From Candidatus Undinarchaeales archaeon (lineage in GTDB: Archaea > SpSt-1190 > JASMDC01), in assembly GCA_030753015.1 (NCBI GenBank), contig JASMDC010000046.1, positions 1-27,361 of the forward strand: a stretch of DNA of 27,361 nucleotides, given 5' to 3'. Position numbers and translations under genes: made by a program. Of the stretch, positions 4,231-24,188 are shown piece after piece (position 1 is the stretch's first letter; every line of letters begins with the position of its first letter). The notes beneath the pieces were generated by a model that made no database searches, was not told the origin of the DNA, and saw only the letters and a list, made by a program, of their open reading frames with translations.

Positions 4231-4354
4231 GACGGGCATCCTTACATTTACTCGAATTCGAAACGTTTTTATACAACCTGTCGTGCTAAGACATGGCAGG
4301 ATTCTCCTGGGCTTGGAACACCCTGGAGGAAAGGGGACATAGGGGGTACGAGAG

Positions 4355-5425
4355 TTGTACGAACTTAGCGAGAGCACTATAGAGAGCGAGGAAGGGGCCG
4401 GGGAAAAGTATGCCGTCCTCATCTGTGGGATGGCGGACAGTTCTTCCTTCTACAACAACATATCCTTCGTCCACGACATGCTGCTGGAGAAGGGGTACAA
4501 GGAAGAGAACATCACCGTTCTCTACGACAAGGGCGATGATCCGGAGTCGTTCGACACGGTCCGGGCCCAGGGGGAGTCCAAGGAGGGGCCGGCGCGGTAC
4601 GTACCAGCATCCACATACGGCTTCTCTCCGCGGGAGGAGGGTATCGTGGACGGTGCAGCAGACCGCGAGACCATGACCAAGGTGTTCGCCGAGCTCGGCG
4701 AGAAGGTCACCGAGCGTGACGAGCTGTTCGTGTACGTCACGGACCACGGGGGACGCGTCGGCTCGGGACACAAGGCCGAGAGCACCATCGTTGTCACCGA
4801 TCCGGTGAAGGACGCCGAAAAGAGCTCTGAGGAAGGGAGCAATGCGTACCCACTCACCGTCGGATTCGAGCCGGAGTACACCAAGGCCGACGAGGACGAG
4901 GACACTCCACCCGATCCCGAGCAGCTGGAGGATCAGTACGGGGACCTCACGGAAGAGGAGCTCCTGTCCATGTTCTACGGTACCGACATCTACGGGTTCG
5001 AGGGCTTCGGCAGCTTCGATAACTACGACGAGATCACCGAGTCCGAGTTCGCCCAGATGATCAAGCCCATCAAGGCCAAGAGCGAGATCCTGGTGTTCGA
5101 CCAGTGCCACTCCGGCGGTTTTGCTGACCGCTTCGGCAGGGGCAACCGTGTGGCCGTCTCGGCGTGCCGCGCCAACGAGTCGTCCTACATCTCCCACCCG
5201 ATGGACGGATTTCCGGCGACGTTCTTCGGCGCGCTCCGGGGACGTGACTACGACGGCAACGCGATCGACGCGGACCTCAACGGCGACGGCAAGATATCCA
5301 TCAAGGAGGCCTACCAGTACGCGCTCGAGAACGATGAGTTCGCCAACGGCGATGACGGGTGGTTCACCGAGCACCCGCTGCTCATCGCACGGAACCGCGA
5401 CGCTGACGAGGCGTTCATCGATTAG
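4355..5425 (+). CDS. C13/legumain-like (caspase-hemoglobinase fold) cysteine peptidase, very acidic, with C-terminal EF-hand-like loop
   Basis: KYAVLICG first strand; FVYVTDHGG (His) and LVFDQCHSGGF (Cys) dyad; SACRANESSY; DADLNGDGKISIKEAY. Confidence 0.8.
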   Translation: MYELSESTIESEEGAGEKYAVLICGMADSSSFYNNISFVHDMLLEKGYKEENITVLYDKGDDPESFDTVRAQGESKEGPARYVPASTYGFSPREEGIVDGAADRETMTKVFAELGEKVTERDELFVYVTDHGGRVGSGHKAESTIVVTDPVKDAEKSSEEGSNAYPLTVGFEPEYTKADEDEDTPPDPEQLEDQYGDLTEEELLSMFYGTDIYGFEGFGSFDNYDEITESEFAQMIKPIKAKSEILVFDQCHSGGFADRFGRGNRVAVSACRANESSYISHPMDGFPATFFGALRGRDYDGNAIDADLNGDGKISIKEAYQYALENDEFANGDDGWFTEHPLLIARNRDADEAFID

Positions 5426-6744
5426 GCGAGCGGGGCTGCTATCCCGAACGTGACGTACGCCATGTAGATCGACAGCGCCAGTCCTGACCATACTGCGAGC
5501 CGGTGGCCCGCGCGCGGGAAGCCGCTGACGGCCATCTCGACGAGCCCTGCTGCCATGAGCACCGATGCTTGGGGGAGTAGGGGGACGAACCAGCCGGGAC
5601 CGTACGCTCCCGTCATTCCCTCCACGAACGGGTGGGCCAGCACGTAGGCGACCATGGGGACCAGGAACAGGAGCAGTATTACGCCCTGCTCCACGGTGAT
5701 GAGCGCCTTCCATCCCCGCGCGAGGAACACCAATCCCCCCACCACGATCAGGAATGCGGCGAGATAGGTCGGATTTCCGTCCGTGACGCCCGGCCACGCA
5801 AGCGACCGTGCGAGGTGCCCGCTCTCATCCACGACCCGTACAAGCCCGAGACCGGGATCCGTGACCATCTGGATCCGTCCAAAGATGAGCGGGAGCACGA
5901 TGCAGCTGGTGAGGATCACCCACACGACCGAGTGGGCCGCGGTCACCGCCCCCTCGCTCTTGAGTATGAACGCAAGGATGATCATCACGAGGAAAGGGAG
6001 GAGAACGGGGACGACCGTCCGCTCCGCTCCAGAGGCCAGCTCACCCAGATCGTCCGCACTGTATGCCCATACCCCGTAGGGCAGGAGCATCGTTGCGAGG
6101 AAGAGCACGGCCGGCACCATGTGTCCCGCCGGAACGGACCGGCCTAAGAGGGTCCTAGCCACGGCCACCGCCGGGATGAGGAGGTACGCGAGCGGCTCGA
6201 GCTGGACGGCGCACCCCAGGGCGAACCAGAGAGCCACCAGAGGTCGCGCCTTGCCGGTTTTGAACGAACGGACCATCGACAGCGCCACCAGCGAGACGAC
6301 GAGCGGGAGGTAGCCCCCCTGCCACGGCCCGAGAGCGTACCGAGTAACAGTGAACGGGAGAGTGAGGTAGAACAATCCTGCAAGGAGCCCCGTCTCGGCA
6401 CCCCCTACTGCGCGCCCGATGCGTGACACCAGGAACGCAGTGGCGAGGTGCACGAGCAGCATGACGTGCACGAGCGGTCCGGTGCCAGTGCCCGCTACGA
6501 GACCAACGGCGACATGAAGGAGCGTCCCGAGCGGTCCTGTTGGGACGCCCAGTTCTCCTGTCGGGCCCATGCTCGGGAACACGCCGTCCTCCAGTGCCTC
6601 CCGGGCCAGGGACGCGGCGGGCGCACCGGTGTTCCTGGATGCCGCTCCTGGTGCTGCCCAGAGGCCGAAGATCAGGGCTGCGAGAAGTGCCGCGGCAAGG
6701 ATGTGATCCGGGTCCGGTGGTTCCAGCACCCTTCTTGCGGCCAC
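5422..6744 (-). CDS. Polytopic membrane protein, probable GT-C glycosyltransferase (ArnT/PMT-like)
   Basis: About 11-12 hydrophobic segments; N-terminal loop GVFPSMGP..GVPTGPL and GLLAGLFYLTLP pattern resemble ArnT-like proteins. Confidence 0.6.
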   Translation of the reverse strand: MAARRVLEPPDPDHILAAALLAALIFGLWAAPGAASRNTGAPAASLAREALEDGVFPSMGPTGELGVPTGPLGTLLHVAVGLVAGTGTGPLVHVMLLVHLATAFLVSRIGRAVGGAETGLLAGLFYLTLPFTVTRYALGPWQGGYLPLVVSLVALSMVRSFKTGKARPLVALWFALGCAVQLEPLAYLLIPAVAVARTLLGRSVPAGHMVPAVLFLATMLLPYGVWAYSADDLGELASGAERTVVPVLLPFLVMIILAFILKSEGAVTAAHSVVWVILTSCIVLPLIFGRIQMVTDPGLGLVRVVDESGHLARSLAWPGVTDGNPTYLAAFLIVVGGLVFLARGWKALITVEQGVILLLFLVPMVAYVLAHPFVEGMTGAYGPGWFVPLLPQASVLMAAGLVEMAVSGFPRAGHRLAVWSGLALSIYMAYVTFGIAAPLA

Positions 6745-6794
6745 GCTCCTTTAAAGGTCCTCCCGCTTAATAAGGGTGCCGTCAGGCTGATGGT

Positions 6795-7685
6795 TCAGAG
6801 CCGGTCGAAGATCTGACACTTGAGCGCGATAGCGGTGCTGAGGCTATGTCCTTCGAACATAACGGAGCGGACGATGTTCTGGATGTAGAACCGGGAGGCG
6901 GCGTTGGGCGTCTGCACCGTAAGGCCGTCCATGATGGTCGTGCGCTCGTCATAGGGGTCGATGGTGCACTTGCGCCGTTCGGCCTCCTTGCCCACTAGAC
7001 GTGCGAGCTCGCTGATGTTCACGAACACCATGGCGACCACCTTGCCCCCTTTCACGAGGCGGCGGGCCTTGGGCCATAGCCAACGCGTGTAGGGGCGCTC
7101 GATACCCAGGTCCTTGTCCATCCCGATGGTCAGTGATGATGGCAGCCACAGGTCACGGATCCCGACCTCTCGCTCCAGGCGCTCGGTGGCCTGTTCGAGG
7201 GGCTCGCCGGCCGGGATGCACGCGATGAACATCCCCGGTTCGGGCCGTGCGTAGGCGGCCGAACCCTGCTGCCGACAGCGGAGGACCGTGCGGGCTACTT
7301 TCCGTCGCGGACGGAGCAGCTCGTCGCGGAGCGGGAGGTCCAAGGTCATCCGGAAGGAGCGGCCACCAGCGAGCTTCTTGTCGAGCACCTCGTTCTGCAC
7401 GTTCTCTCCCAGGCGAGGAACGATGTGGATCACGGTCCCCTCGTTACTTGCGCTGAAGATGGCATGGGGTACCGGAGGGGTTTCGCGCCTCGTGAAACTG
7501 AGCCGGGCCCGCATCTCCGTCGGCGTGTCCGCAGCGACGTCCCAGTACACGTCAACGACATACCCCTGTTCCTCCAGTCCCTGACGGATGGAGTCGAGGT
7601 TCTGGTTGACGGCCGGGAGCAGTGGCGGTATATTGAGCAGCAGCTGCGAGCTCGTGATCTGCTCATCGGTCCCGCTCATGGTCAT
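6795..7685 (-). CDS. Hypothetical soluble protein (about 296 aa)
   Basis: Long ORF with host-like codon usage; AGGAGG RBS just before ATG at 7685; no family recognised. Confidence 0.7.
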   Translation of the reverse strand: MTMSGTDEQITSSQLLLNIPPLLPAVNQNLDSIRQGLEEQGYVVDVYWDVAADTPTEMRARLSFTRRETPPVPHAIFSASNEGTVIHIVPRLGENVQNEVLDKKLAGGRSFRMTLDLPLRDELLRPRRKVARTVLRCRQQGSAAYARPEPGMFIACIPAGEPLEQATERLEREVGIRDLWLPSSLTIGMDKDLGIERPYTRWLWPKARRLVKGGKVVAMVFVNISELARLVGKEAERRKCTIDPYDERTTIMDGLTVQTPNAASRFYIQNIVRSVMFEGHSLSTAIALKCQIFDRL

Positions 7686-7791
7686 GTGCCCTCCTGTGCA
7701 CGGTGTGGCCCCGTTCGCATTTAACGTTTTCGCCCAAGGCCGCCTCTTCACTGTCGAAGCCATTATATTGGTTGCTGTCCATAAGGATGTC

Positions 7792-8490
7792 ATGACCGAT
7801 GTGCCTTGGTACGTGGACAACTATCAGGTGTTCATCCTCATCGTGCTCCTCACGATCGGGTACGGGGCCGTCGACATCATGAACGCCACGGAACGTGAGC
7901 CCGCCGGATCTACCTGGGAGGAGCGCAACGCCGACCGCCTGGAACTAATGGAGACCGCCACGACCGATGAGCTCATCGAGCTCTTGAAGGAGGACGAGAA
8001 CGATCCGCACCCGGGTTTCGAGAAGAAGTCACGGGAAATGTCCGCAGACGATGTAAAGCTGTTCGGCGGTTTAATCGTCATCATCCTCTCCTACAGCTGG
8101 TTCAAGACCTTCCAGCGGTTCAAGGAGGTCGTCGACGCCCTCGGCCCGCAGCTGGCCGTTGTGGAGGTGGTGAAGTTCATGCGTAACACCAGCCTCCACT
8201 GCACGACGCATGACGGCAGGGCCTTCTACCTCTACTACTTCGGCGGTGCAAAGCACTCTCGTGCCTACTACGAGCTGTGGATCGACACCATGACGATGCC
8301 CGATATCACGGGTGCCGAGCAGTACATAGCTGCCATCGACCATCTCGATTCGATCCTTGCGCTCCCTGGGGACACCGAGGGCAGCTGGAAGCTCACGGCC
8401 CGTCTGTCCGACGAGTGGTTCACTTCCGAGACGCCAGACATCCTCAAGACGCTGGACGCCCTCTACGCGCTGAGGGACCGGCGGCGGTGA
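7792..8490 (+). CDS. Two-TM membrane protein, tandem paralog 1
   Basis: MTDVPWYVDNYQVF start; shares LHCTTxDGRxFYLYY..GxKH..AYY and TLDAL..LRD motifs with the next two ORFs. Confidence 0.8.
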   Translation: MTDVPWYVDNYQVFILIVLLTIGYGAVDIMNATEREPAGSTWEERNADRLELMETATTDELIELLKEDENDPHPGFEKKSREMSADDVKLFGGLIVIILSYSWFKTFQRFKEVVDALGPQLAVVEVVKFMRNTSLHCTTHDGRAFYLYYFGGAKHSRAYYELWIDTMTMPDITGAEQYIAAIDHLDSILALPGDTEGSWKLTARLSDEWFTSETPDILKTLDALYALRDRRR

Positions 8491-8539
8491 CGGCCGGGTC
8501 CGGCTCATTTATTTATTGGTAGCCGTGTTCACGGTGAAC

Positions 8540-9136
8540 ATGGTCGAAGCTCCTTGGTACGTGGAGAACTACCGGGCGTTCCTTCTTGCGTCGCTCCTGG
8601 CGGTCGTGCTCTTTCTGGCACCGATGTTCCCCTGGATGTTCACACCGTACATGGACGACTGGATCGATCTTGTGGAGGACGCTGACGAACCAGGGTTCTT
8701 CATGGTCATGGCGTTAATACCGGGGATACTCGGGTACTCCTATTTCAAGACCTTCCAGCGGTACTGGGAGGTGGTCGAGGCCCTGGGCGACCGTCTGGTG
8801 TCAGTGGAGGTGATCGGCTTCATGCGTCACACGAGCCTCCATTGCACGACCTACGACGGCAGGTCGTTCTATCTCTACTACTTCGGCGGGGCCAAGCACA
8901 TGCCCGCTTACTACAAACTATCGATCGACCTGCCCGGCAAGCTGCCGCGGTTCGACTCCACGCCGCACGTGGAGGCCATCTACCACTTGAAGAGTATCGA
9001 GGTCGAGTACGGTGACGAGGAGGGACAGGACAAGCTCGTTGCCAAGTTGTCCGACCAGTGGTTCGTGTCGGAGACGAAGGACATCCTAAACTCGCTTGAC
9101 GCGCTCCACAAGATACGTGACGAGAAGCGGAAGTAG
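8540..9136 (+). CDS. Two-TM membrane protein, tandem paralog 2
   Basis: MVEAPWYVENYRAF start; YSYFKTFQRYWEVVEALG and FMRHTSLHCTTYDGRSFYLYYFGGAKH closely match paralog 1. Confidence 0.8.
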   Translation: MVEAPWYVENYRAFLLASLLAVVLFLAPMFPWMFTPYMDDWIDLVEDADEPGFFMVMALIPGILGYSYFKTFQRYWEVVEALGDRLVSVEVIGFMRHTSLHCTTYDGRSFYLYYFGGAKHMPAYYKLSIDLPGKLPRFDSTPHVEAIYHLKSIEVEYGDEEGQDKLVAKLSDQWFVSETKDILNSLDALHKIRDEKRK

Positions 9137-9184
9137 TCCGGCCGGTGCCGTAGCTATTTATTGGTTGTACCGCACAGAGGATGC

Positions 9185-9775
9185 ATGCCGGAGATCCCCG
9201 TGCACATCGAGCGGTACCAGCAGTTCCTGGCAGTTGGGATCATCGTGGGGCTCATCGTCGTGAGCGTGTACTTCCATGAACGACTCCCCTGGGGTGACAC
9301 TGTCAAGGACCTCTTCCCGACAGATACTCGTGCAGCACTGATAGCTCACATAGCTCTCATTGTGATTGGCCTCACCAGCCTCGCTCTGGCGCTCACGGGC
9401 GAGCGGTTCGTCTGGGCGCTCGACGCCCTTGCCACTCGCCTGGGTACGGCCGAGGTCCACGGCTCAATGTGGAGCGGGATCCTCCGTTGCACGACCCCCG
9501 ACGGAAGGAGCTACTTCCTGTATTACTATCCTGGCAGAAAGCACACTCGCGCCTACTACGAGCTCTGGCTGGAGCTACTGACCGAGCTCGAAGACCTCGA
9601 TTCCGGCGAGCATATCACGGCCATCGACCATCTGGAGAGCATAGCCGTGCGGCCGGGGGATGGCGGAGGCCCGGCGAGACTGGTCGCACACCTCAACGAG
9701 AGCGCAACGTCGACGGACGCTCTTCCCAGAACCCTGGACGCGCTGTTCGAGCTCAGGGACCACAGGCGACAGTGA
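9185..9775 (+). CDS. Two-TM membrane protein, tandem paralog 3
   Basis: MPEIPVHIERYQQF start; LRCTTPDGRSYFLYYYPGRKHTRAYYELW and AIDHLESI motifs. Confidence 0.8.
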   Translation: MPEIPVHIERYQQFLAVGIIVGLIVVSVYFHERLPWGDTVKDLFPTDTRAALIAHIALIVIGLTSLALALTGERFVWALDALATRLGTAEVHGSMWSGILRCTTPDGRSYFLYYYPGRKHTRAYYELWLELLTELEDLDSGEHITAIDHLESIAVRPGDGGGPARLVAHLNESATSTDALPRTLDALFELRDHRRQ

Positions 9776-9785
9776 GAACTGATCG

Positions 9786-9974
9786 TCATTCGACCTTGAT
9801 GCTCTTCTCCTTGATCTCGTTCAGTATCAGGTTCGTTTCCGTCCTTTCGATGAACTCGTACGTCTGTATATTCTTGAGGAACGCGTCCATGGATTTCCTG
9901 TTCTTCAACTTGGCGATGATCACGACATCGAAATGCCCGGTAACGTCGTAGACGGTAAAGACGTGCGGATTGAT
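9786..9974 (-). pseudogene. 3' remnant of Lrp/AsnC family regulator (effector-binding RAM domain only)
   Basis: Hand translation: INPHVFTVYDVTGHFDVVIIAKLKNRKSMDAFLKNIQTYEFIERTETNLILNEIKEKSIKVE*; no HTH domain and no start codon ahead of this segment, in-frame stop about 25 nt upstream. Confidence 0.8.
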
Positions 9975-10095
9975 GCGCGAGCTTCTCGGATAGGAGCTCT
10001 TTCAGAAGTTCGCTGAGACGAAGGAGAGGGAAGCGGAAGAGTCCAGGGTAGCTGTCACCGACTGGGACCTCGAGAAATACCTGGAAGCGTGCTAG
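9973..10095 (+). pseudogene. glnA: 3' remnant of type I glutamine synthetase
   Basis: Hand translation: MRELLG*ELFQKFAETKEREAEESRVAVTDWDLEKYLEAC*; matches the GSI C-terminal LG..F...K..E......VTDWE...YL pattern; internal TAG at 9991-9993. Confidence 0.7.
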
Positions 10096-10108
10096 AGGAT
10101 GGCCTGTA

Positions 10109-13539: not shown

Positions 13540-15057
13540 GTGGTAGTCTGCCTCGTCAATCCACCGCAGCTGTCCACACCCTACCAAGTGACGGACGGCC
13601 TCATGCCGCCCCTTGGCATCATGTTCCTTTCCGCAGTGCTCAAGAAGGAGGGGTTCGATGTGCACGTAATCGATGCACCGGGCGAGGCATCGACGAATCG
13701 GTACGAGCATGACGGGAACCCGCTCCGCGGCCTCGGGATCGAAGCGATCATCGAGCGCATCCCCGAAGGGACGCGGCTCGTGGGGATCGCCGGTATCTTC
13801 TCCATGAACCACCACGTACTCATGGAGCTTGCCCATTCCGTCAAGGAACGGTTGCCAGATGTCATCGTGGTCGTCGGGGGGTCACATGCGACCGCCGTGG
13901 CCGAGTACGTCATGAAATCCGAGGATGTTGATGTCGTGTGCCTGGGGGAAGCTGAACGCTCGCTGCTCGCCCTTTGCCACACCCTGGAGCGTAACGGATG
14001 GCGGACGGTCCCAGCCGACCTTGCTGGGATCGCGGGGATAGCCTACCGTGACGGGGAGCGTATCGTAGTCAATAGGGACGTGGAGCTCATCGACGACGTG
14101 GACGCTATTCCCTATCCCGACTGGAAGAGCGTGCCCATGGAGACCTACTACACCTCTAAAGAAGCGAATGGACCGGTATGGACCGATCGCTGGGTACCGC
14201 TGCTCTCCTCACGGGGCTGTCCGTACGACTGTGCCTTTTGCAGCACACCGGCCATATGGCGTCGTCGATGGCGTCCGCGCGACCCGGTCAAGCTCATCGA
14301 CGAGATAGCCTGGCTCCAGCGTGAGCATGGGATCCAGGAGGTGCACTTCGAGGACGAGAACATGAGCACCGATCCCAAGAGGCTGGAAGCGTTCTGTGAC
14401 GAGCTCGTACGACGGGACATCGGTATCAAGTGGCAGGCAGCGAACGGAATGCGCGCCCACGGCCTCGACAGGGAGCTGCTGACAAAGATGGTCGCCTCCG
14501 GGTGCACGAACCTCGTGCTCGCCCCCGAGTCAGGTTCCCGCTGTCTCCTCCGTGAGGGACTTAACAAGGACATCGACCTGGACGAGATCGCGCAAGCTGG
14601 TCGGACCGCCCACGGACTGGGACTGCGTACGTCCACATTCTTCATGATGGGCATGCCCGGGGAGACACGAAGGGACGTCGCCCGGACCCTGGTATATCTC
14701 ATGCGGCTGGCGTTCGCTGGGGTGGACGAGTGCTCGATCGGGCAGTTCGTGCCTCTCCCCGGGAGCCGTCTGTTCGACCGACTGCGCTCCGAGGGACGGA
14801 TCGAGCTCGATGACGCGTTCTTCCGCTCGCTCACGGCAATGGGCGATCTCTCCTCGTCACGCTCGTGGTCCGAGCACTACTCCAATCCGGAGCTGAAGAT
14901 ATACCAGCTGATCGGCCTCGGCCTGTTCCACGTCACCCGGCTCGTGTTCCATCCCGTGAGCACGGCACGGACCTTCGCCAATGTGCTCAAGGGACGGCAG
15001 GAGCTGAAGAGCGAGCGGTTCCTCATCTCGAAGCTACGCCGGTTTAGAGGTAGATGA
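13540..15057 (+). CDS. Cobalamin-binding radical SAM protein
   Basis: LVNPP, PPLG, VGGSHAT, GEAE B12-binding domain; SSRGCPYDCAFC; FEDEN; PESGS; FMMGMPGET; PLPGS. Confidence 0.93.
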   Translation: MVVCLVNPPQLSTPYQVTDGLMPPLGIMFLSAVLKKEGFDVHVIDAPGEASTNRYEHDGNPLRGLGIEAIIERIPEGTRLVGIAGIFSMNHHVLMELAHSVKERLPDVIVVVGGSHATAVAEYVMKSEDVDVVCLGEAERSLLALCHTLERNGWRTVPADLAGIAGIAYRDGERIVVNRDVELIDDVDAIPYPDWKSVPMETYYTSKEANGPVWTDRWVPLLSSRGCPYDCAFCSTPAIWRRRWRPRDPVKLIDEIAWLQREHGIQEVHFEDENMSTDPKRLEAFCDELVRRDIGIKWQAANGMRAHGLDRELLTKMVASGCTNLVLAPESGSRCLLREGLNKDIDLDEIAQAGRTAHGLGLRTSTFFMMGMPGETRRDVARTLVYLMRLAFAGVDECSIGQFVPLPGSRLFDRLRSEGRIELDDAFFRSLTAMGDLSSSRSWSEHYSNPELKIYQLIGLGLFHVTRLVFHPVSTARTFANVLKGRQELKSERFLISKLRRFRGR

Positions 15058-15059
15058 GC

Positions 15060-16913
15060 TCAGGTGTCCTGCCAGCAGTTTCCGTCCAGACCGCACTCCG
15101 CATCCTGGGGACAGCCACACACCTGGCATGCGGGTACGAGCCCCCGTTCTCGTACGCAAAGGAACGGCTTCACTGCGGAGCATGAGCCGTGGTTGGTTCC
15201 ATCGTCACATATCTGGTCCGGATCGTAGCACCGATCGTCGGAGTAGCACCCCATGCCGTCCGGACAGCCGCAGAGGGCGCAGTCGGGGATGAGCGATGGT
15301 TTGTCCGGCTCGCAGTAGTTACCGCCGCCGGCCGCACAGGTGCCCGCTGGTGTACCGTCCGCGCATGACTCGTACGGGTAGGGAAGGAACCAGCCACGGA
15401 TGCCCCCGGCGTCGTCCATGGTCCCCGATGCACGGGCCGTGGTCTCGATGAACCTGCTTGCCCCGTCGCTGAACGTGACGTGGAGGAGGACGTGGTTGAT
15501 GGTGCGTGGCGCGGACAGGCTGTCCGAGTCGACGTAGGCGAACTGCAGGTGCATCCCGTACGACGCGTGCCCGTTACCTGCCATGACGAGCGCGGCCATG
15601 AGCACCGCCGAGTCACGGCAGCTCCCCCGTCCCTCAGTGAGGGTCTCCAGTGGCCACTGGGCCGTTTCGTTGGTGACCTGGTAGATCATGAGCCGGTTCT
15701 TGAGGTTGTACACCTCGTCGATGAACTGTCGTGCCGTCCGGCCATCGGTCAGGTCGCCGATCACGTCGGTGAACGCCTCCGGCCGCACGAAGGTGCGGTA
15801 GTCCGGCGTGGTGAGGTTCTCCTCCGTGCAACCAGGGCAGGAGATGGGCCGGTAGTACACGGGTCGGGGCGCCGATACCAGGGTGCGGTAGGTGTCCACG
15901 GGCATGTTCCACACCACGGTCTCCCCGCGATTGTCGGGGTACTGCCAACGGATCGTCCCCTCGTTGATGACAGTGTGGAATCCCTCGGGCGACGTCGTCT
16001 GTGGCCGTTCGACGCAGTACGAGCGGTCGGTGTCGCACGCATGGTCCGGCGGGCAGTCCGCATCCGTCCGGCAGCACAGTGTCCCCGCAAGGCAGCACAC
16101 CCCTCCTGCACAGTTACCGCTCGCGCACTCGCCCGATGCATTACAGTCGCCACCATTGGGCACGTGCGTGACGGTCGGGGACGGTGAGGGTGTGGATGAC
16201 GGTCCGGTCCCGTCCCCCGTACAGGCCGACTCGGCATGGTCGCACGCCATCCCTCCGGGACAGTCGCGGTCATCCTGGCAGCATGTCCTGCCCACGGTAC
16301 AGCACACGCCGTTGATACAGTTGTCGCTGAGGCACTCATCGTCCACGGTGCACGGCATGCCGTTGAGCCGCGTGGCCTCAGGTACCGTCCCCCCGCTCCC
16401 CGGTGTAGGTACCTGACTGGTGCCTGCCACGCAGTAATAACGGTCCGTGTCGCACTGCTCCTCCGGGCCGCAGTCCCGGTCATCGAGACAGCATGCATTG
16501 CCTTCGAGGCAGCACACTCCGGCCCCGCAGTTACCGCTGAGGCACATGTGGTCCCCGTCGCACATCATGCCGTTGCGGCGCGGTGCTTGGGTGGGTGAAG
16601 ATGTGGGTGCTGGTGTTTGCGAGGGTGTCGGGAGTGGGATGCAGAAGGACCGGTCGGTATCGCAGCGATCCCCATCGTCACAGTCACGGTCGGTGCTGCA
16701 ACAGTCCCTCCCGAGCAGGCAGCATATGCCGTTCCGGCAGTTGCCGCCGAGGCACTCCATATCATCGGAACAGGGCTCGCCGATCCCGGACAATGGCGGT
16801 GCTGCTATGGGTAGCGTGGTGGGTGCAGGGCCCGTGTCGGTCTGCTCACCGACGCAACCCGATATGAGGACGAGTGCGAGGACGAGCGCCGCGACCATCC
16901 GTCCCGGGACCAT
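15060..16913 (-). CDS. Secreted lipoprotein with Cys-rich repeats and a transglutaminase-like domain
   Basis: Lipobox-like LVLISGC; four 10-Cys repeats; WPLETLTEGRGSCRD (Cys), NHVLL (His), FIETT (Glu) triad; two C-terminal 8-Cys repeats; start 16913 or 16898. Confidence 0.8.
   Translation of the reverse strand: MVPGRMVAALVLALVLISGCVGEQTDTGPAPTTLPIAAPPLSGIGEPCSDDMECLGGNCRNGICCLLGRDCCSTDRDCDDGDRCDTDRSFCIPLPTPSQTPAPTSSPTQAPRRNGMMCDGDHMCLSGNCGAGVCCLEGNACCLDDRDCGPEEQCDTDRYYCVAGTSQVPTPGSGGTVPEATRLNGMPCTVDDECLSDNCINGVCCTVGRTCCQDDRDCPGGMACDHAESACTGDGTGPSSTPSPSPTVTHVPNGGDCNASGECASGNCAGGVCCLAGTLCCRTDADCPPDHACDTDRSYCVERPQTTSPEGFHTVINEGTIRWQYPDNRGETVVWNMPVDTYRTLVSAPRPVYYRPISCPGCTEENLTTPDYRTFVRPEAFTDVIGDLTDGRTARQFIDEVYNLKNRLMIYQVTNETAQWPLETLTEGRGSCRDSAVLMAALVMAGNGHASYGMHLQFAYVDSDSLSAPRTINHVLLHVTFSDGASRFIETTARASGTMDDAGGIRGWFLPYPYESCADGTPAGTCAAGGGNYCEPDKPSLIPDCALCGCPDGMGCYSDDRCYDPDQICDDGTNHGSCSAVKPFLCVRERGLVPACQVCGCPQDAECGLDGNCWQDT
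16014..16781 (-). repeat. Four copies of a 10-Cys protein repeat separated by Pro/Thr/Ser linkers
   Basis: Spacing C-x5-C-x4-C-x4-CC-x5-CC-x5-C-x5-C-x6-C is the same in all four copies. Confidence 0.9.
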
Positions 16914-16941
16914 AAGAAGACAGGTGGCGCCCAAAGATTAT

Positions 16942-17925
16942 CTACCTATCGATAACGGGGACGGTCACAGCATCGCGCCATCGCCGGTGGTAGGCGAGCG
17001 CCGCCATGGCACCGATGCACCCGCGCCTGCCCGTGACCGGTTCAAGGCCGACGGAGGGAAGGGTCGCGGCCGTGCTGAACGTGTCATCAATGCTCACCAC
17101 AGCTCCCCTTGCGGCCCGACCGAAGAACGAGAGCGCTGGTGGGACGTCCCGGCCATGGAGCCAGGCCAGCCCCGTGTGCTCGGACAGGGTCCACTTCTCC
17201 AGGAGGTGGCGGGCCCTTCGCAGGAGAGCGTCACGTCCGTCCGTTGGTACGGCGAGCGTGATCGCGGTGGCCACGCAGTTGCGCGTTCGGTGTGGGGCGC
17301 TGGGGTAGAGCTGGGCGAGAGCGTGGTAGAGATAGTCTCCCAGTCCACCTTCCTGGAGCGCGGTCCCGAGGGTGTGACACAGGGACCACGTGGATCCCTC
17401 GTCCTCGGTGTCCGTGTCGTCGACACCCAGTACGACCTTCTCCCGGAGCGGGAGCACGACCGTGGCAGAGCTCTTTCGTGAGCCTCCCGGGGGTTCGTGG
17501 ACCACGATGCGCAGCACACCCTTGGCGAGCCCGCGGGAGATACATGCCCCGACCCCACCTCCGCCGAGACCGTGGTACGTGACACGCACCTCATCGGCCT
17601 CCCGGTCCACGACCACAGCACCGATACCCGCGGGGCGGAGGCCAGGTACCAGTTCTGGCTCGACATCACCGGTACACAGGTCATAGATGGCGAGCGTCCC
17701 CTCACGTTGCGCGCTGGTGACCAGCTTACTGGCGGCCGGGTAGTGGTGGCCTGTCCATGCAGCACCGCCGAGGCAGCTGCCCTCCTCTACGAGCTCGACG
17801 AACGTGGGATCCGCTGGATCGACCGTGGCAGTGATCCGCTTCGTGGAGGTCGCCCAGGGGACGTCCGCTACCAGGGAACGCAGCTCCGAGGGCAGGTGCT
17901 CACCGGGTGACAGCTCCAGCGCCAT
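16942..17925 (-). CDS. mmp11: Methanogenesis marker protein 11 (C-terminal half TiaS-like)
   Basis: VELVEE.SCLGGAAWTGHHY, TYHGLGGGGVGA, LGVDDTDTEDEGSTW, QLYP...RTRNCV, GRRGCIGAMAAL; likely start MALELSPG at 17925. Confidence 0.85.
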   Translation of the reverse strand: MALELSPGEHLPSELRSLVADVPWATSTKRITATVDPADPTFVELVEEGSCLGGAAWTGHHYPAASKLVTSAQREGTLAIYDLCTGDVEPELVPGLRPAGIGAVVVDREADEVRVTYHGLGGGGVGACISRGLAKGVLRIVVHEPPGGSRKSSATVVLPLREKVVLGVDDTDTEDEGSTWSLCHTLGTALQEGGLGDYLYHALAQLYPSAPHRTRNCVATAITLAVPTDGRDALLRRARHLLEKWTLSEHTGLAWLHGRDVPPALSFFGRAARGAVVSIDDTFSTAATLPSVGLEPVTGRRGCIGAMAALAYHRRWRDAVTVPVIDR

Positions 17926-17945
17926 GGCACCGACGCCGCTGACAA

Positions 17946-17956
17946 GCTTAATAAAC
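17946..17956. promoter_or_regulatory. Bidirectional TATA element for mmp11 and the mtxX operon
   Basis: CTTAATAAAC is the only AT-rich stretch in the 53-bp gap between starts at 17925 (-) and 17979 (+). Confidence 0.65.
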
Positions 17957-17978
17957 CATGCGCCCGGTGGTGGAGGGT

Positions 17979-18827
17979 ATGGGGGCCACCGTGTGGGAGG
18001 CGGTCGTGGCCATGGCACGGGAAAGACCGTCCAAGGTGGCGCTTGGCATGCGTCCCGGTGTGTCCCCTGATGATGACGCCTTCCTTGCCGACGCTGAGCG
18101 GTTCCGATCAGAGGGTTTCGGTTGCCCGATCGTCGTGACGCTCCCCGGTGTGCAGGTCCCCGGCGAACTGGACGTGATCGAGGCCAAGGATCCCGAGCGT
18201 GAGCTCGTCCGCCTGCTGGCCGACGGCGAGGTGGATGCTGCCGTCCGCGGTGCCCTGGACGCCGCAACGACCCTGGGGCACCTGAAGCGCGCCTTCAACG
18301 TCCCTTCGCTCTGTCGTATCGCCCTCCTTCGTGCTGCGAACGGGCAGGAGTTCTTCCTCGCGCCCGTGGGCGTGGTGGAGGGTGCTGCAATGGTCGACCG
18401 TCTCGAGCTCGTGCGACGGTTCACCGAACTGGCCGCACTCCTTGGGATCGAGCCCAAGATATCGGTGCTCGCCGAGGGCAGGATGGAGGACCGTGGGCGA
18501 GGCCGAACCGTGGAGGAGAGCCTTCACGAGGCCGAGCTCATCACGAAGCTGGCCCGGGACCGTCTCGGAGTGACGGACGTCCGGATGACGGGCATCGTCA
18601 TCGAGGAGGCCTTGGAGGACGGACCTCGTCTCGTGCTGGCGCCGAGCGGACCTACCGGCAATCTAGTGTTCCGGAGCCTCGTGTACCTGGGCGCAGGGGA
18701 AGCTCTGGGTGCCCCCGCCTGCTCCCTCCGCCGTCCCTTCGTGGACGTGTCCCGTGGTCGAACGGACGTGCTCAATGCCATGGTCTTCGCGTCCGCGATG
18801 GTGGCCGGGGGATGGGATAATGGGTGA
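17979..18827 (+). CDS. mtxX: Methanogenesis marker protein 4 / MtxX (phosphotransacylase-like fold)
   Basis: VDAAVRG, FFLAPVGVVEG, EPKISVLAEGRMEDRGR, LAPSGPTGNLVFRSLVYLG, FVDVSR motifs; GGAGG before ATG 17979. Confidence 0.88.
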   Translation: MGATVWEAVVAMARERPSKVALGMRPGVSPDDDAFLADAERFRSEGFGCPIVVTLPGVQVPGELDVIEAKDPERELVRLLADGEVDAAVRGALDAATTLGHLKRAFNVPSLCRIALLRAANGQEFFLAPVGVVEGAAMVDRLELVRRFTELAALLGIEPKISVLAEGRMEDRGRGRTVEESLHEAELITKLARDRLGVTDVRMTGIVIEEALEDGPRLVLAPSGPTGNLVFRSLVYLGAGEALGAPACSLRRPFVDVSRGRTDVLNAMVFASAMVAGGWDNG

Positions 18828-20346
18828 TCTGGCCCACGCGCTGGCCGACACACTGGCCGCGCTCGGCTCCCGTCGATGCATGTGCAACCCTGGCCAGGAC
18901 GTCGTTGCCGTTATCGATGCCCTGGAGGGCAGTATGGGGACTACCATGTTCCCAACAGAAGTGGGGGCAGGATTCGCCGCTGACGGGTATCGTCGTGTGG
19001 ACCCGCGGGGGACGGACCTTCCCGTGTGCGTCGTGACCGGCAAGGCCGGTGCCGCACACCTCGCCCTCCCGCTCGAGAACGCGTTCGCCGACGGAGTCGG
19101 GATGCTCGCAGTGACGGGCAGGTGCACCGTGGAGCTTGCGACGGTGAGCGTGGCAAACGTCGACATCGGCGATAACACCAGCAAGGGCCTTCCTGAAGTG
19201 GTGAACGCCTTCGAGCTCGCATGTACGCCACCGCAGGGTCCGGCGCTCGTCACGCTCGACCGTACGGCCCAGTACGGACCGGCCGAAGCAGCGCCCCGTG
19301 AGCTTACCTTCGGGCATCGCGATCCCTCTCCGCGCGATGTGGAACAGGCCACGGACATCATCGCGAGCGCCGAACGACCGCTCATCCTCCTGGGCACTGG
19401 CTGCCTGTCAGGGGACGTGGAGGGCCTGCGCGAGGCCGTGACGGCCATCGGGATCCCCTGTGTGACCTCGATGCCTGCGCGGGGTGTCGTGGACGAGGAG
19501 CTCGAGCAGTGCCTCGGTCCTGCCGGTATGCGCGGCAAGGCAGCAGCGAACGACGCCCTGCGCGGGGCCGACGCTGTCCTCGCCGCTGGCTGCTCACTCT
19601 CTCATCTGACGGTCCCCGTCGGTGCACTGGACGGCACGCGTGTGTTCCGGGTGGACGTACGTGGGCAGGCCGATGCCGATACGGATGCTGCGGCCTTCGT
19701 CACAGCGACCCTACACGCCGTCGATGAGCGTGAGCCGTGGGTCCGGGCCGATGGACCGCTCGTGTACGAGGGTTCGTTCGCGGCACCGGTCGCGGTATCG
19801 TCGATCATGGACACCCTCCGCCCCGGCGACTGCCACGTCTATGATGTGGGGGCGTTCTCCATGTGGGCGTGTGCTGCCGGCACCGTCCGTGAGCCGGGAT
19901 CCTTCCTCATGCCCCATAACGTGTACCCGCTCGGGTACGCCGTCCCGGGGGCCATCGGCGCCCTCATGCGCGGGACACGAGAAAGGATCGTGGCCGTGTG
20001 CGGCGATGGAGGTTTTGTCGCATCGCTGGCCACCCTCCCTATGGCCGCTGAGCACGACATCACGATCGTGGTGCTCGATGACGGGGGGATGGACATCATC
20101 CGCCAGCGGCAGGTCGAGCGAGGGCTCTCCACTTTGACCTCGCACCTACCCCGGACCGATCCCGTGGCGTTAGCGCGTGGCTGTGGCATCGAGTCCGTGC
20201 GTGTCGACCGTCGCGAGGACCTTGTGGCCCAGCTCGAGGGTGCGGGCCGCGGAGCGCTCCTAGTACACTGTCGGCTGGAGCGGGGCCCCAGGATCCTGGG
20301 CGCTCTGGATGGCAACAATTTTAAAGTCAGGGATGGTTCGGGATGA
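18820..20346 (+). CDS. Thiamine diphosphate-dependent enzyme (acetolactate synthase/decarboxylase superfamily)
   Basis: TEVGAGFAADGY (catalytic Glu), GMRG, LGYAVPGAIG, CGDGGF...VVLDDGG ThDP-binding motif; start overlaps the mtxX stop. Confidence 0.9.
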   Translation: MGDLAHALADTLAALGSRRCMCNPGQDVVAVIDALEGSMGTTMFPTEVGAGFAADGYRRVDPRGTDLPVCVVTGKAGAAHLALPLENAFADGVGMLAVTGRCTVELATVSVANVDIGDNTSKGLPEVVNAFELACTPPQGPALVTLDRTAQYGPAEAAPRELTFGHRDPSPRDVEQATDIIASAERPLILLGTGCLSGDVEGLREAVTAIGIPCVTSMPARGVVDEELEQCLGPAGMRGKAAANDALRGADAVLAAGCSLSHLTVPVGALDGTRVFRVDVRGQADADTDAAAFVTATLHAVDEREPWVRADGPLVYEGSFAAPVAVSSIMDTLRPGDCHVYDVGAFSMWACAAGTVREPGSFLMPHNVYPLGYAVPGAIGALMRGTRERIVAVCGDGGFVASLATLPMAAEHDITIVVLDDGGMDIIRQRQVERGLSTLTSHLPRTDPVALARGCGIESVRVDRREDLVAQLEGAGRGALLVHCRLERGPRILGALDGNNFKVRDGSG

Positions 20347-20347
20347 C

Positions 20348-21358
20348 GTGGTCGGTCACATCCTGCAGCTGAAAGCAGAGCTCCTCGCTGATGGCCGGGT
20401 CCGCCTTCATCCGGGCGTTTCCACGATCGGCATCATCTCCGCCCCAACCGCAGGACCGGCAGCGGGCGAGTCTACCGTGTTCATCCGCCTTGACGGCTCC
20501 CGGGTGCGCCTCAGGCTCGACGACCATGCACGTGTGGCCCTGACGGCCGAGGGGACGCTCGAGCGTGACGGTGAGGTCATCGCCACCGGTGTCAAGCTTG
20601 AGCCCGTTGTGGCACACTGCCCGGAACAGGTGTACACGACCGTGGTCCCAGGATGTATCCACAAATGTGCATTCTGCGCCCTTTCGGGGCACGTAGCTGC
20701 CGCCCGCTCCGAGGAGATAATTATTTCACGTATCGAGCATGCATTCAAGTCATCGGTGGTTGTCCCCGTGGCGCTCACGTCCGGTGTGTCACCCGACGGT
20801 TCCGAGCTGGACCTCTGCGTGAGAGTCGTGAATCGCATCAAGGACAAATGGCGCGTGGTCCCGGTCGGAGTGTCGATCTGCATCAAGGACAAGAAGGACC
20901 TCGAGCGGCTCCTTGAGGCCGGGTGCGACGAGATCAAGATCAACCTCGAGGTGGCCGATCCGGACATCCTTCGCAAGGTGTGCCCCCATAAGGACCGGGA
21001 CGCCATCATCGCTCTCATGAAGGAGGCCGTTGAGATGTTCGGCCGGGGCAGAGTGTGCTCCAATATCATCCTCGGCCTCGGGGAGAGCGATCAGGCCGTG
21101 CTGGACACCATGAAAGAGCTTGCAGCAATAGGGGTCGTGGCCAACCTGCGACCGTTGGAGGTGACGCTGGCCGTTGAGCCCGCCCTGGAGCGTGCTCTGG
21201 GGATCGGGGGTTTCGCTCGACCGCAGGCCGACCGGCTCATCCGGCTGGCAGAGGCGCAGTGCAAGATCCTCGCCAAGCACCGTCTTTCGGCCTCCGGTAT
21301 GGACACGATGTGCTCGGCATGCACGGGGTGTGACCTGGCTCCTGGAGAGGACCTGTGA
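20348..21358 (+). CDS. Radical SAM protein (biotin-synthase-related) with extra C-terminal CxxCxxC
   Basis: AHCPEQ, GCIHKCAFC, ALTSG, IKINLE, SNIILGLGE, TMCSACTGCDL; start is GTG 20348 or ATG 20333. Confidence 0.88.
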   Translation: MVGHILQLKAELLADGRVRLHPGVSTIGIISAPTAGPAAGESTVFIRLDGSRVRLRLDDHARVALTAEGTLERDGEVIATGVKLEPVVAHCPEQVYTTVVPGCIHKCAFCALSGHVAAARSEEIIISRIEHAFKSSVVVPVALTSGVSPDGSELDLCVRVVNRIKDKWRVVPVGVSICIKDKKDLERLLEAGCDEIKINLEVADPDILRKVCPHKDRDAIIALMKEAVEMFGRGRVCSNIILGLGESDQAVLDTMKELAAIGVVANLRPLEVTLAVEPALERALGIGGFARPQADRLIRLAEAQCKILAKHRLSASGMDTMCSACTGCDLAPGEDL

Positions 21359-21370
21359 GGTGACCGGGGC

Positions 21371-22543
21371 GTGGTGCGCGAGCTGACGGACGTGGGAGCG
21401 GCATCACTGTACGCACAAAGGATACGACTGAAGGGGCCGATCGAGCTCTACGATTCAACTCTCCGGGACGGCGAGCAGACCCCTGGCGTGTGCTTCACCC
21501 CTGACGAGAAGGAGGCGATCGCGCGCGAGCTCGACGCAGTGGGCGTACCCATCATCGAGGCCGGATTCCCTGTGGTATCGCCCAAGGAGGCCGAGGGCGT
21601 CAGGCGGATCGTGGCTGCTGGACTCGACGCGCGGCTAGTGGCGCTCTCGCGACTCAGGGATGAGGACATCGACGTCGCCGTGGACTGCGGTGTGGATGGC
21701 GTGCTCCTCTTCATCGCGAGCTCGGACGTCCATCTCGACCACAAGCTCCACATGGACCGGGAACAAGTACTGGAGGCCGTCGCCTCTAAGGTTGCCTATG
21801 CTCGCGACCGTGGGCTCCGTGTCCAGTTCACTCCCGAGGACGCGTCCCGGACAGATCCTGCATTCCTCAAAGAAGTGCTCGCCACTGCCGAGTGGGCGGG
21901 TGCCGAGCGTGTGGGCGTGGCCGATACCGTGGGTATCCTCGATCCGGCAGCGACCAGACGGCTGGTGCGTACGGCCATGGAGGCCGTGAAGGTACCGGTC
22001 TCCGTCCACCTCCACAATGACCTGGGTCTGGCGACCGCGAACACCCTTGCAGCCTTCGAGGAGGGGGTCGTGGCCGCTGCCGTGACGGTGAACGGCATCG
22101 GCGAGCGTGCCGGAAACGCCTCCCTGGAAGAGGTCGCTGCGTCGCTGGCCGTCCACTACGGGTACGACTGCGGCATCGACCTCTCCCGACTCACAGAGCT
22201 ATCCGAGCTCGTCTCCCATCTCACGGGCATACCCGTACCAGGCAACAAGGCGGTGGTCGGCCCCAATACGTTCACCCACGAGTCCGGTATCCATGTGGCC
22301 GCAGTACTGGAGGAGCCTGCCACCTACGAACCGTTCCCAGCTGAGCTCGTGGGAGGGCGGCGCAACCTTGTGTTCGGCAAACACAGCGGACGGAAGGCCG
22401 TGCGCCACCTCCTTCGGAAGGAGGGTCTCGCTCATGGTCCCGATGCCGTCGGTCGCGTGCTGGCACTGCTCAAGGACGTGGAGGGGCCGTTGACCCATCG
22501 GGAGCTGATTGTGCTGACAAGGGACGGGGGTACGATGCAGTGA
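21371..22543 (+). CDS. aksA: Homocitrate synthase family (DRE-TIM), no regulatory domain
   Basis: DSTLRDGEQTPG, IEAGFP, EDASR, ADTVG, HLHNDLGLA, NGIGERAGN, HESGIH, GKHSG; 390 aa lacks the LeuA C-terminal regulatory domain. Confidence 0.8.
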   Translation: MVRELTDVGAASLYAQRIRLKGPIELYDSTLRDGEQTPGVCFTPDEKEAIARELDAVGVPIIEAGFPVVSPKEAEGVRRIVAAGLDARLVALSRLRDEDIDVAVDCGVDGVLLFIASSDVHLDHKLHMDREQVLEAVASKVAYARDRGLRVQFTPEDASRTDPAFLKEVLATAEWAGAERVGVADTVGILDPAATRRLVRTAMEAVKVPVSVHLHNDLGLATANTLAAFEEGVVAAAVTVNGIGERAGNASLEEVAASLAVHYGYDCGIDLSRLTELSELVSHLTGIPVPGNKAVVGPNTFTHESGIHVAAVLEEPATYEPFPAELVGGRRNLVFGKHSGRKAVRHLLRKEGLAHGPDAVGRVLALLKDVEGPLTHRELIVLTRDGGTMQ

Positions 22544-23544
22544 CCATACCTCTCGTGGTGGTCCGTGGCGATGGTGTGGGGCCCGAGGTCGTTGACGCGG
22601 CCCTTGCGGCAGCATCCCCCCTTCTGGACGGCTTCGAGCTCGTGGAGGCCCGGATGGGGTTGACATGCTACCGGGAGACTGGGAGCGCGCTGCCCGCGGA
22701 CACGCTCGAGATGCTACGGGACGGAGGGCTCGCCCTCCTTGGCGCGGTCCAGACCCCGCCCAACGCCCATTACAGCTCGCCATTGTTACGTATGCGACGG
22801 GAGCTCGACCTGTTCGCCAACCTGCGCCCGGTCCGCGACCTCCGTGGCGGGCCCGTCGACCTGGTGGTCGTGCGGGAGAACCTCGAGTGCCTGTATGCCG
22901 GTCTCGAAGGCGGTAATGAGGACACTGCCCTGGCGATCCGCGTGATCACACGACAGAATTGCGAGAGGATATCGCGGTTCGCTCTGGAGCTCGCTCGTGA
23001 CCGGTCGGAGGATCACCGGAAGGTGACCTGCGTGCACAAGGCCAACGTACTGGCCCAGACCTGCGGTCTCTTCCGAGACACCTTCACCAGGGTGTCCGGG
23101 GACTACCCGGACGTGCCCGTGGACGAGCTCCATGCGGATGTGTGCGCCATGCGGATGGTCATGGATCCAGGCTCCATGGACGTTCTTGTCACCACCAACA
23201 TGTTCGGTGACATCCTCTCCGACCTGGCCGCGGGACTGGTCGGCGGCCTTGGCACGGTGCCCTCGGGCAACATCGGCGAGCGATGCGCGGTGTTCGAGCC
23301 CGTCCACGGTGCCGCACCAGACATCGCTGGGAAGGGTGTGGCCAATCCGGCCGCCGCCATCCTCTCGCTCGCCATGCTGCTCGAGCATGCGGGGGACATT
23401 GACGGTGGTCGCCGCCTCTCCCGCGCGGTCGAGTCGTGCGTGCTCGCAGGGGAGACCACACCGGACCTTGGCGGGTCCCTTGGCACCGACGCGGTCGCTA
23501 GGGCGGTCCTGCATCGGCTGGAGACCGATACGGTGGAGGGATGA
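22540..23544 (+). CDS. aksF: Isocitrate/isopropylmalate family beta-decarboxylating dehydrogenase, probable homoisocitrate dehydrogenase
   Basis: [56 protein letters not shown]; coupled to the aksA-like gene; AksF versus LeuB assignment is from context. Confidence 0.75.
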
Positions 23545-24188
23545 GGTTGCGCTGGAACGCTCACGTGATGCTCGCGCTGTGCGGACTTCCTGTCATGGCA
23601 CGCCTCCTGCCCGGCTTCGACCTGTTGGCGGACGGGTTTGTGGCCGCCGTAACGCTCTGTCTGGCCGCCATGCTCCCCGACTTCGACCGGGTGGAGGGGC
23701 TGGACCAGGTTCCCGGCTACCTAACGGGCGTCTGGCGACGCACTCTGGCAGGATGCGTGGTGCTCTATCCCCTGTTCCTCGTAGCCCGTTACATGAATGG
23801 CTGGCGCCCTGTCACACCGGACCTGGGGCTCATGCTGCTGCTCTTGGTCCTGGTCGTGGCCTCGTTCGTGGTGCTTGCCATCGCGTTCGCGCTCCTCACA
23901 CGCCTGCTCGGCCTCGCCCATCGGAAGCTACTCCATTCCCTCGTGCTACCGGTCACTGGCGCTGCTGCTGCCATGATTGAGGGCATTCCCATCATAGTCC
24001 CTGTAGCGTTCGTTCTTGGTTTCGGTTCCCATGCACTGGCCGACGCGCTCACACCGTCCGGTGTGTACCCGTTCTATCCCCTCTCGACCCGCCGGATCTC
24101 CCTGGACGTCGTACGCACCGGCGGGTGGGGCGAGCGCTCCTTCTTGGTCGTGTTCTTCATCACGTTCGTGGCCCTGAGTATATTCTAG
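23541..24188 (+). CDS. Membrane-bound metal-dependent hydrolase (YdjM-like)
   Basis: N-terminal His, [25 protein letters not shown] motifs; ATGA overlap with aksF. Confidence 0.85.

Follow-up and report, generated by a model that had tools for sequence, protein, structure and literature searches.

The archaeal contig JASMDC010000046.1 (assembly GCA_030753015.1; 27,361 nucleotides, the full length of which we call the window) carries on its forward strand, at positions 18820..20346, a gene for a thiamine diphosphate (ThDP)-dependent enzyme of 508 amino acids. Pfam searches, translation, alignment and an AlphaFold2 model describe a three-domain fold like that of acetohydroxyacid synthase (AHAS). 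A first-pass annotation of this DNA had proposed the protein as a 2-oxosuberate decarboxylase. Our analysis indicates that the gene is real and unusual and that the proposed decarboxylase function, though not established, makes a good hypothesis, testable and in part supported.

Sequence and predicted structure of the ThDP enzyme

The ATG at position 18820 lies inside a longer open reading frame (ORF; 18709-20346, forward strand) and translation from it yields 508 residues, in agreement with the position and approximate length first assigned to the gene. This ATG is the likely start because residues 1-20 of the protein can be aligned to the initial helix and strand of AHAS-type enzymes and have a confident model (predicted local distance difference test, pLDDT, 94-97). 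Three Pfam domains score above their gathering scores, namely TPP_enzyme_C (PF02775; 89.9 bits, E = 1.8e-25), TPP_enzyme_M (PF00205; 74.9 bits) and TPP_enzyme_N (PF02776; 61.5 bits). The enzyme is of the POX/AHAS-like three-domain type, with N-terminal (Pyr), middle and C-terminal (PP) domains.

Motif columns were read from an alignment of 153 AHAS sequences (the AHAS set) and 116 sequences of shorter paralogs (the short set, described below). The cofactor-activating residue Glu47 (18958-18960, forward strand) stands in a column that is Glu in all 153 and all 116 of these sequences. The ThDP/metal motif G395-D396-G397 (20002-20010, forward strand) belongs to a GDGGF stretch at residues 395-399. 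Located in this way, the catalytic Glu and the GDG motif that the first-pass annotation had reported are indeed kept, and together with the three Pfam domains they confirm its observation of a ThDP enzyme gene. The reading frame is intact and the protein keeps 14 columns that are invariant across 103 sequences.

The AlphaFold2 model, built on the 103-sequence alignment, has a pLDDT of 91.7 and a predicted TM-score (pTM) of 0.92, with disorder confined to residues 495-508. When the model was compared with the Protein Data Bank (PDB) by Foldseek, the top match was yeast AHAS (TM 0.84) and the nearest folds were the AHAS or acetolactate synthases (ALS) of yeast, Candida, plants and Bacillus (TM 0.79-0.85, 20-23% identity). 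These matches confirm the fold of the predicted model without discriminating between functions. The G+C content at third codon positions is 0.758 for the gene and 0.70-0.81 for its neighbours, in a window of about 64% G+C; because this value is typical of the window, the gene shows no sign of recent transfer.

The enzyme is distinct from housekeeping acetolactate synthase

On the best NCBIfam models for AHAS the enzyme scores 138 bits (TIGR00118, cut-off 538.35) and 141 bits (NF004919, cut-off 866), and its identity to the canonical 565-residue AHAS of Methanopyrus is 28%, which bears out the divergence from acetolactate synthase noticed in the first pass. The low score does not reflect a general divergence of the organism, because RtcA (349 bits, cut-off 250), GlmM (482, cut-off 439) and GlmU (300, cut-off 292) of this window all score above the curated thresholds for their families. 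For the two aks-like neighbours of the ThDP gene the scores come to 60-90% of the cut-off.

The close relatives of the enzyme form only three clusters (83-91% identity), one of which is named 'Methanopyri archaeon' by its source. A 565-residue acetolactate synthase large subunit is listed for Methanopyrus kandleri, Methanopyrus sp. and Methanopyrus sp. SNP6. Two Methanopyrus AHAS of this length score 960-970 bits against the cut-off of 866; P0470 reaches 840 bits on TIGR00118 and 960 on NF004919. Judged by these scores, the Methanopyrus lineage has a normal AHAS, and since Methanopyrus carries this separate canonical enzyme, the ThDP enzyme is by sequence a second paralog.

Differences from AHAS are also found at residues that we take to line its substrate and herbicide channel. 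The FQE loop is shortened in the ThDP enzyme (it reads VAN-V); FQE was used to define the AHAS set, so its count of 153/153 is circular, and the counts for the other two motifs are not. GMHG reads GMRG, with Arg238 (19531-19533, forward strand) replacing a His that is present in 137 of the 153 AHAS-set sequences. RFxDR reads SLSHL, at positions where R, F, D and R occur in 150, 138, 132 and 150 of the 153. In addition, the metal motif has D420-D421 (20077-20082, forward strand) where AHAS has NN. We dropped the QWQ Trp as a discriminator, as this residue is present in 106 of 153 AHAS-set sequences against 60 of 116 in the short set.

No IlvN/ACT, IlvC or aconitase domain was found by Pfam (E≤1e-5) in the 28 window ORFs scanned, a selection from 123 listed ORFs that leaves out the smaller overlapping ones; the remark that ilvH and ilvC are missing from the window holds for this set. 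We rejected the enzyme as a biosynthetic IlvB on three grounds: it falls below the curated cut-offs, it departs from AHAS at the FQE loop, GMHG and RFxDR, and no ilvN/ilvH or ilvC lies nearby. This sequence evidence separates it from the AHAS that serves branched-chain amino-acid synthesis.

Relatives among short methanogen paralogs

An exhaustive HMMER search of 1.84 billion representative sequences with the ThDP enzyme returned 7243 proteins at E≤0.001 and 7 at E≤1e-30. The best matches outside Methanopyri are seven short paralogs of 502-532 residues (E 2e-45 to 4e-30), with canonical AHAS following from about 1e-28. These short paralogs are likewise below the AHAS cut-offs: the two best AHAS models give them 347-466 bits. 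Profile and single-sequence searches (best 120 matches listed) delineate a family of about 500-545 residues. Its organism-named members in the short set are 11 Methanomethylicia (Verstraetearchaeota, Methanosuratincola) and 6 Methanobacterium, so that 17 of 17 belong to methanogen lineages; the set was sorted crudely by length and motif, which left four named Methanobacterium/Methanobacteriaceae proteins outside it and placed one more in the AHAS set.

The ThDP enzyme is 25-30% identical to the short paralogs and shares with them the Arg at the GMHG position, which is found in 110 of 116 short-set and 6 of 153 AHAS-set sequences. Its profile scores express a weak preference for the short family (251 bits on the short-family hidden Markov model, 234 on that for AHAS); P0178 and P0111 score 479-533 bits on the short-family model against these 251.

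The phylogeny against IlvB that the first-pass annotation had suggested gave a divided answer. The Methanopyri branch that holds the ThDP enzyme is very long (1.5-2.3 changes per site), and in FastTree and in the first IQ-TREE it joins P0125 and P0133, which lack the catalytic Glu (SH-aLRT branch support 84). After removal of these two and one other long row, the enzyme lies inside a 25-row short clade (SH-aLRT 97). With all rows kept, constraining it to group with the short clade improves the log-likelihood by 10.4 units over that of the free quick search (approximately unbiased test, p-AU 0.72). We therefore judged the placement with P0125 and P0133 to be long-branch attraction and set it aside. 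Independent support for placement in the short family comes from the Arg that replaces the GMHG His in both. The ThDP enzyme is probably a very diverged member or a sister of the short methanogen paralogs, a sequence-based placement that is not firmly settled.

P0125 and P0133 are themselves AHAS-like proteins in which Pro replaces the cofactor-activating Glu, and they have a VDE / CxGP motif in common with the ThDP enzyme. In the ESM Atlas both the ThDP enzyme and P0125 retrieve generic 'thiamine pyrophosphate-binding protein' clusters, mostly bacterial. A contig scan with a 7-sequence alignment matched at least 80 loci. Of the 80 listed, 78 are bacterial and two archaeal (L002, Methanophagales; L010, Pyrobaculum), neither of the latter appearing to be a short paralog, and none is from Methanopyrus; the pattern scanned for, Ax[HFY]A[AC]DGY[AR]R, occurs in AHAS-like enzymes of every kind. 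At the Methanophagales locus, genes for 572, 166 and 331 residues follow one another, an order judged from sizes and arrangement to be ilvB-N-C.

A packed gene array around the ThDP gene

On the forward strand the ThDP gene stands second in the order MtxX, ThDP enzyme, radical SAM protein, AksA-like synthase, AksF-like dehydrogenase and YdjM-like protein, and successive junctions along this strand measure -8, -38 (or -14), +12, -4, -4 and +6 nucleotides. The upstream mtxX-like gene, stop codon included, extends 8 nucleotides into the ThDP gene. From this packing we infer that the array may form one transcript with translational coupling. Terminator-like sites, scanned for with a bacterial-type model, number 4 against 4.0 expected from shuffled sequence and are not above chance. 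The co-transcription asserted in the first pass is thus supported by same-strand packing and overlapping stops and starts, and the terminator scan adds nothing to it.

The MtxX or methanogenesis marker protein 4-like gene (17958..18827, forward strand) scores 173.9 bits on NCBIfam TIGR03270 (cut-off 190). Its start is uncertain, with an alternative ATG at 17989 after GGAGGG, and an AT-rich TTAATAAA box is seen just upstream of the gene (about 17949-17956). MtxX is described in the available part of a recent study as a near-universal methanogen marker with a phosphate acetyltransferase (PTA)-like fold and no known function, and its gene neighbours differ between methanogen orders, being uppS, mmp12, mmp2 or mtxAH (PMC12978539). 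An mtxX-ThDP arrangement is not mentioned in that part of the published synteny (PMC12978539).

Overlapping the 3' end of the ThDP gene is a gene for a radical SAM protein of 349 residues (20309..21358, forward strand; Pfam Radical_SAM, 62.5 bits). The protein has a CxxxCxxC motif at residues 116-123, a C-terminal CxxCxxC and an N-terminal stretch of about 100 residues without assignment. NCBIfam matches (variant_rSAM 79 bits, LipS2 67, bioB 54, LipA 31-36) are all below their cut-offs, and no PDB sequence matches at E≤0.01. Apart from variant_rSAM, the named likenesses of this protein are exclusively sulfur-inserting enzymes, and the next step of coenzyme B synthesis needs sulfur.

Next come an AksA-like homocitrate-type synthase of 390 residues (21371..22543, forward strand), in which Pfam finds HMGL-like and HCS_D2 domains only and no LeuA regulatory domain, and an AksF-like homoisocitrate-type dehydrogenase of 334 residues (22540..23544, forward strand; Pfam Iso_dh, 287 bits). 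In the PDB the synthase scores highest with homocitrate synthase 6ktq, at 286 bits, and the best isopropylmalate synthase gives 244; for the dehydrogenase the top matches are 3asj/1x0l, both homoisocitrate dehydrogenases, at 276 bits, with isopropylmalate dehydrogenase at 208. Because of these higher PDB scores, and because the synthase is without the LeuA regulatory domain, both genes lean to the homocitrate/homoisocitrate rather than the leucine type, and their putative assignment as AksA and AksF is reasonable.

The last gene joined by a 4-nucleotide overlap encodes a YdjM-like membrane protein of 215 residues (23541..24188, forward strand; Pfam YdjM, 41.5 bits). Divergent from the array lies the gene for methanogenesis marker protein 11 (Mmp11; 16942..18267, reverse strand), which scores 266.1 bits on NCBIfam TIGR03280 (cut-off 255.8) over residues 143-434 and has a weak kinase-like match to TiaS_TCKD (36.9 bits, residues 280-339). 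The first 130 or so codons of the Mmp11 ORF overlap mtxX on the opposite strand; they are probably non-coding, with the real start further in. The window is the DNA of a methanogen, and Mmp11 and the MtxX-like protein are its two products of the methanogenesis-marker kind.

A candidate 2-oxosuberate decarboxylase of coenzyme B synthesis

We consider it possible, if well short of probable, that the ThDP enzyme is the 2-oxosuberate decarboxylase in the route that leads to the 7-mercaptoheptanoate moiety of coenzyme B. It is a sensible decarboxylase candidate because the acceptor-side residues of AHAS are lost, because the gene appears coupled to those for AksA and AksF, and because the lineage has an AHAS of its own. 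NCBIfam has named families of AHAS-fold enzymes whose sole reaction is decarboxylation.

As a plain 2-oxoacid decarboxylase, the enzyme would act on the chain-elongation product of AksA and AksF, our best guess being the conversion of 2-oxosuberate to 7-oxoheptanoate and CO2. By the chemistry of the superfamily, Glu47 would activate ThDP, the C2 ylide would attack the 2-oxo group of the substrate and CO2 would then leave. The resulting enamine would be protonated instead of condensing with a second oxoacid, and the aldehyde would be released. Binding of the distal carboxylate could fall to Arg238, which stands at the substrate-channel position of the AHAS His.

In the literature searched, which covered few subscription journals, we found no gene assigned to 2-oxosuberate decarboxylation. 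The accessible part of a 2011 review speaks of an 'estimated 2 unknown proteins' for coenzyme B (PMC3087415).

To the long branch, the first tree topologies and the weak profile preference described above must be added several other observations that tell against this role. The linkage of a ThDP gene to Aks genes is seen in this one window, and the three close clusters all lie on contigs of at most 125 kb. Since the neighbours of mtxX vary by order, part of the gene order in the window is lineage-specific. Among the best 120 matches, the named relatives are from Methanomethylicia, Methanobacterium and Methanopyri only, so the short family seems patchy, not universal among methanogens; a universal step of coenzyme B synthesis would be expected in every methanogen, and this distribution therefore weighs on the other side. 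Both presumed Aks genes fall below curated cut-offs: the synthase scores 438.6 bits on LEU1_arch (cut-off 484.75) and 392.8 on nifV (cut-off 462.9), and the best named equivalogs of the dehydrogenase are AksF2_Meth (342.8 bits, cut-off 540) and AksF_Meth (322.8, cut-off 500). The homoaconitase AksD/E was not found in the window, as no aconitase domain was detected by Pfam in the 28 ORFs. Asp421, at the position of the Mg-ligand Asn, is rare in both sets (4 of 153 in the AHAS set, 3 of 116 in the short set). Finally, non-oxidative decarboxylation is one of several chemistries of the ThDP superfamily. The 2-oxosuberate proposal rests on gene order in one lineage and on superfamily chemistry, from which we infer what the substrate would be, that the outcome would be non-oxidative and that the enzyme would be linked to coenzyme B.

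Two statements of the first-pass annotation survive these observations in part. It had held that the neighbouring genes would make long-chain 2-oxo-diacids; AksA-like and AksF-like genes are present, and with no AksD/E they would be insufficient alone. It had then assigned 2-oxosuberate decarboxylation to the ThDP enzyme, in favour of which stand a ThDP enzyme that is not AHAS, neighbours leaning to Aks and closely packed genes, against a linkage seen once, a patchy family and AksA-like and AksF-like proteins below their cut-offs.

Alternatively, the enzyme may be a carboligase of the AHAS/ALS kind, that is, a second acetolactate or acetohydroxybutyrate synthase or a related former of C-C bonds, in a branched-chain-type operon with LeuA/CimA-like and LeuB-like genes. 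Clustering in the style of ilvB-leuA-leuB is common, AHAS models are the best named matches of the enzyme and AHAS structures its best matches in sequence and fold, and the downstream genes miss the AksF and homocitrate-synthase cut-offs. Its scores are nevertheless about one fifth of the AHAS cut-offs in a window whose housekeeping genes pass theirs, the FQE loop with its conserved Gln is shortened, and His is changed to Arg. Neither a small-subunit nor an ilvC domain occurs in the 28 ORFs scanned, Methanopyrus already possesses a canonical AHAS, and the neighbours match homocitrate and homoisocitrate enzymes above leucine enzymes. We regard this explanation as unlikely.

Also improbable is that the enzyme decarboxylates some other 2-oxoacid (sulfopyruvate, 2-oxoglutarate, 2-oxoadipate, or an aromatic or guanidino compound), with the adjacency to aks-like genes incidental. 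Simple decarboxylases that resemble AHAS are known; the enzyme scores 104.7 bits on the model for 5-guanidino-2-oxopentanoate decarboxylase, and benzoylformate decarboxylase appears among its PDB matches at E of about 1e-10. Such matches are, however, far below cut-offs (500 for the guanidino enzyme), and the gene overlaps argue for a transcript shared with the aks-like genes.

The 8-nucleotide overlap between the mtxX stop and the ThDP start allows a third explanation, in which the enzyme works with PTA-like MtxX and the product from a 2-oxo-diacid would be an acyl phosphate or thioester, such as a pimeloyl unit, and not an aldehyde. By analogy, sulfoacetaldehyde acetyltransferase (Xsc) pairs with phosphotransacetylase (Pta), and pyruvate oxidase and Xsc are of the same superfamily and among the weaker matches of the enzyme. 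The NCBIfam pyruvate oxidase score is however only 98.5 bits against a cut-off of 742. The PTA-like fold described for MtxX would suit such a partner, whereas its near-universal presence with order-specific neighbours (PMC12978539) contrasts with the patchy ThDP family. We think this very unlikely.

That the enzyme is a decayed or non-catalytic paralog, for instance with a structural or regulatory role, is scarcely credible: the very long branch, the shortened loop near the active site and the change of the Mg-ligand Asn to Asp would fit, but Glu47, GDG and the 14 invariant columns (103 sequences) are kept in an intact frame, the three Methanopyri relatives are 83-91% identical and the model is confident.

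Returning to the 2-oxosuberate decarboxylase, a wider proposal would take the divergent transcription units at 16.9-24.2 kb as a 'late steps' cluster of coenzyme B synthesis, uniting AksA/AksF, the ThDP enzyme, the radical SAM protein, MtxX and Mmp11. AksA and AksF would feed the chain, 2-oxosuberate would lose CO2 by the action of the ThDP enzyme, and sulfur would be brought in by the BioB/LipA-like radical SAM protein or some other partner. PTA-like MtxX and Mmp11 with its kinase domain would activate the acid, join threonine and phosphorylate. We rate this extension as highly doubtful. If true, it would give functions to two orphan methanogenesis markers and fill every missing step of the pathway.

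Other genes in the window

A B12-binding radical SAM protein of 505 residues is encoded at 13540-15057 (forward strand). Its best NCBIfam scores are 186 bits on a P-methyltransferase-like model (cut-off 575) and 166 on a BchE-like model (cut-off 481), and the model for the methyl-coenzyme M reductase glutamine C-methyltransferase gives 78 bits (cut-off 360). Eight long ORFs (204-624 residues; 4286-10100 and 15060-16934) have no Pfam or NCBIfam match at 1e-5, and some overlapping ones among them may not be genes. The 624-residue ORF at 15060-16934 (reverse strand) has faint transglutaminase-like matches of 18 bits.

Significance for coenzyme B synthesis

Every methyl-coenzyme M reductase needs coenzyme B, in methane formation as well as in the anaerobic oxidation of methane and alkanes. 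For the enzymes that follow 2-oxosuberate, no genes are assigned in the literature searched. With a concrete candidate gene open to expression and assay, this long-standing gap comes within reach of direct experiment. If confirmed, the enzyme would be a methanogen-specific target; it would also offer a natural decarboxylase from C8 to C7 oxoacids for engineered Aks-based routes to C6/C7 monomers, which reportedly use unrelated decarboxylases.

Comparison with known systems

The catalytic subunit of AHAS, IlvB (yeast 1jsc/5wkc and Methanopyrus P0470), resembles the ThDP enzyme in fold, activating Glu, GDGGF and the GxG of the middle domain. The ThDP enzyme differs in being about 57 residues shorter than Methanopyrus AHAS and in having Arg for the Trp of QWQ and DD for NN. 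With the short methanogen 'thiamine pyrophosphate-binding proteins' it shares length, a motif of the [RS]LSxL type and Arg for the GMHG His, and monophyly with them is not rejected and is favoured in the constrained tree. A shortened loop and DD at the position of NN set it apart from all of them.

In the available part of a 2016 study, MJ0663 and its homologs are an uncharacterised AHAS-like paralog of 506 +/- 26 residues, present in all 15 Methanococci examined and about 30% identical to AHAS (PMC5311999). The short methanogen paralogs are possibly the same group as the MJ0663 family (arCOG02000), a comparison made by published description only.

Precedent for the conversion of a 2-oxoacid to an aldehyde is found in the same superfamily, in 5-guanidino-2-oxopentanoate decarboxylase (AruI; NF005712, on which the ThDP enzyme falls short of the cut-off as stated above) and benzoylformate decarboxylase. 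Neither NCBIfam nor PDB matches disclosed a specific kinship of the ThDP enzyme to these two.

The sulfopyruvate decarboxylase ComDE is a two-subunit enzyme without a middle domain, and it is absent from the NCBIfam, PDB and HMMER matches of the ThDP enzyme. Its likeness lies in the reaction: with ThDP as cofactor it decarboxylates its substrate non-oxidatively, and the aldehyde so formed is the precursor of a thiol cofactor of methanogens, as given in the accessible part of the 2011 review (PMC3087415). By this analogy, ComDE of coenzyme M synthesis is the closest functional counterpart of the role proposed for the ThDP enzyme.

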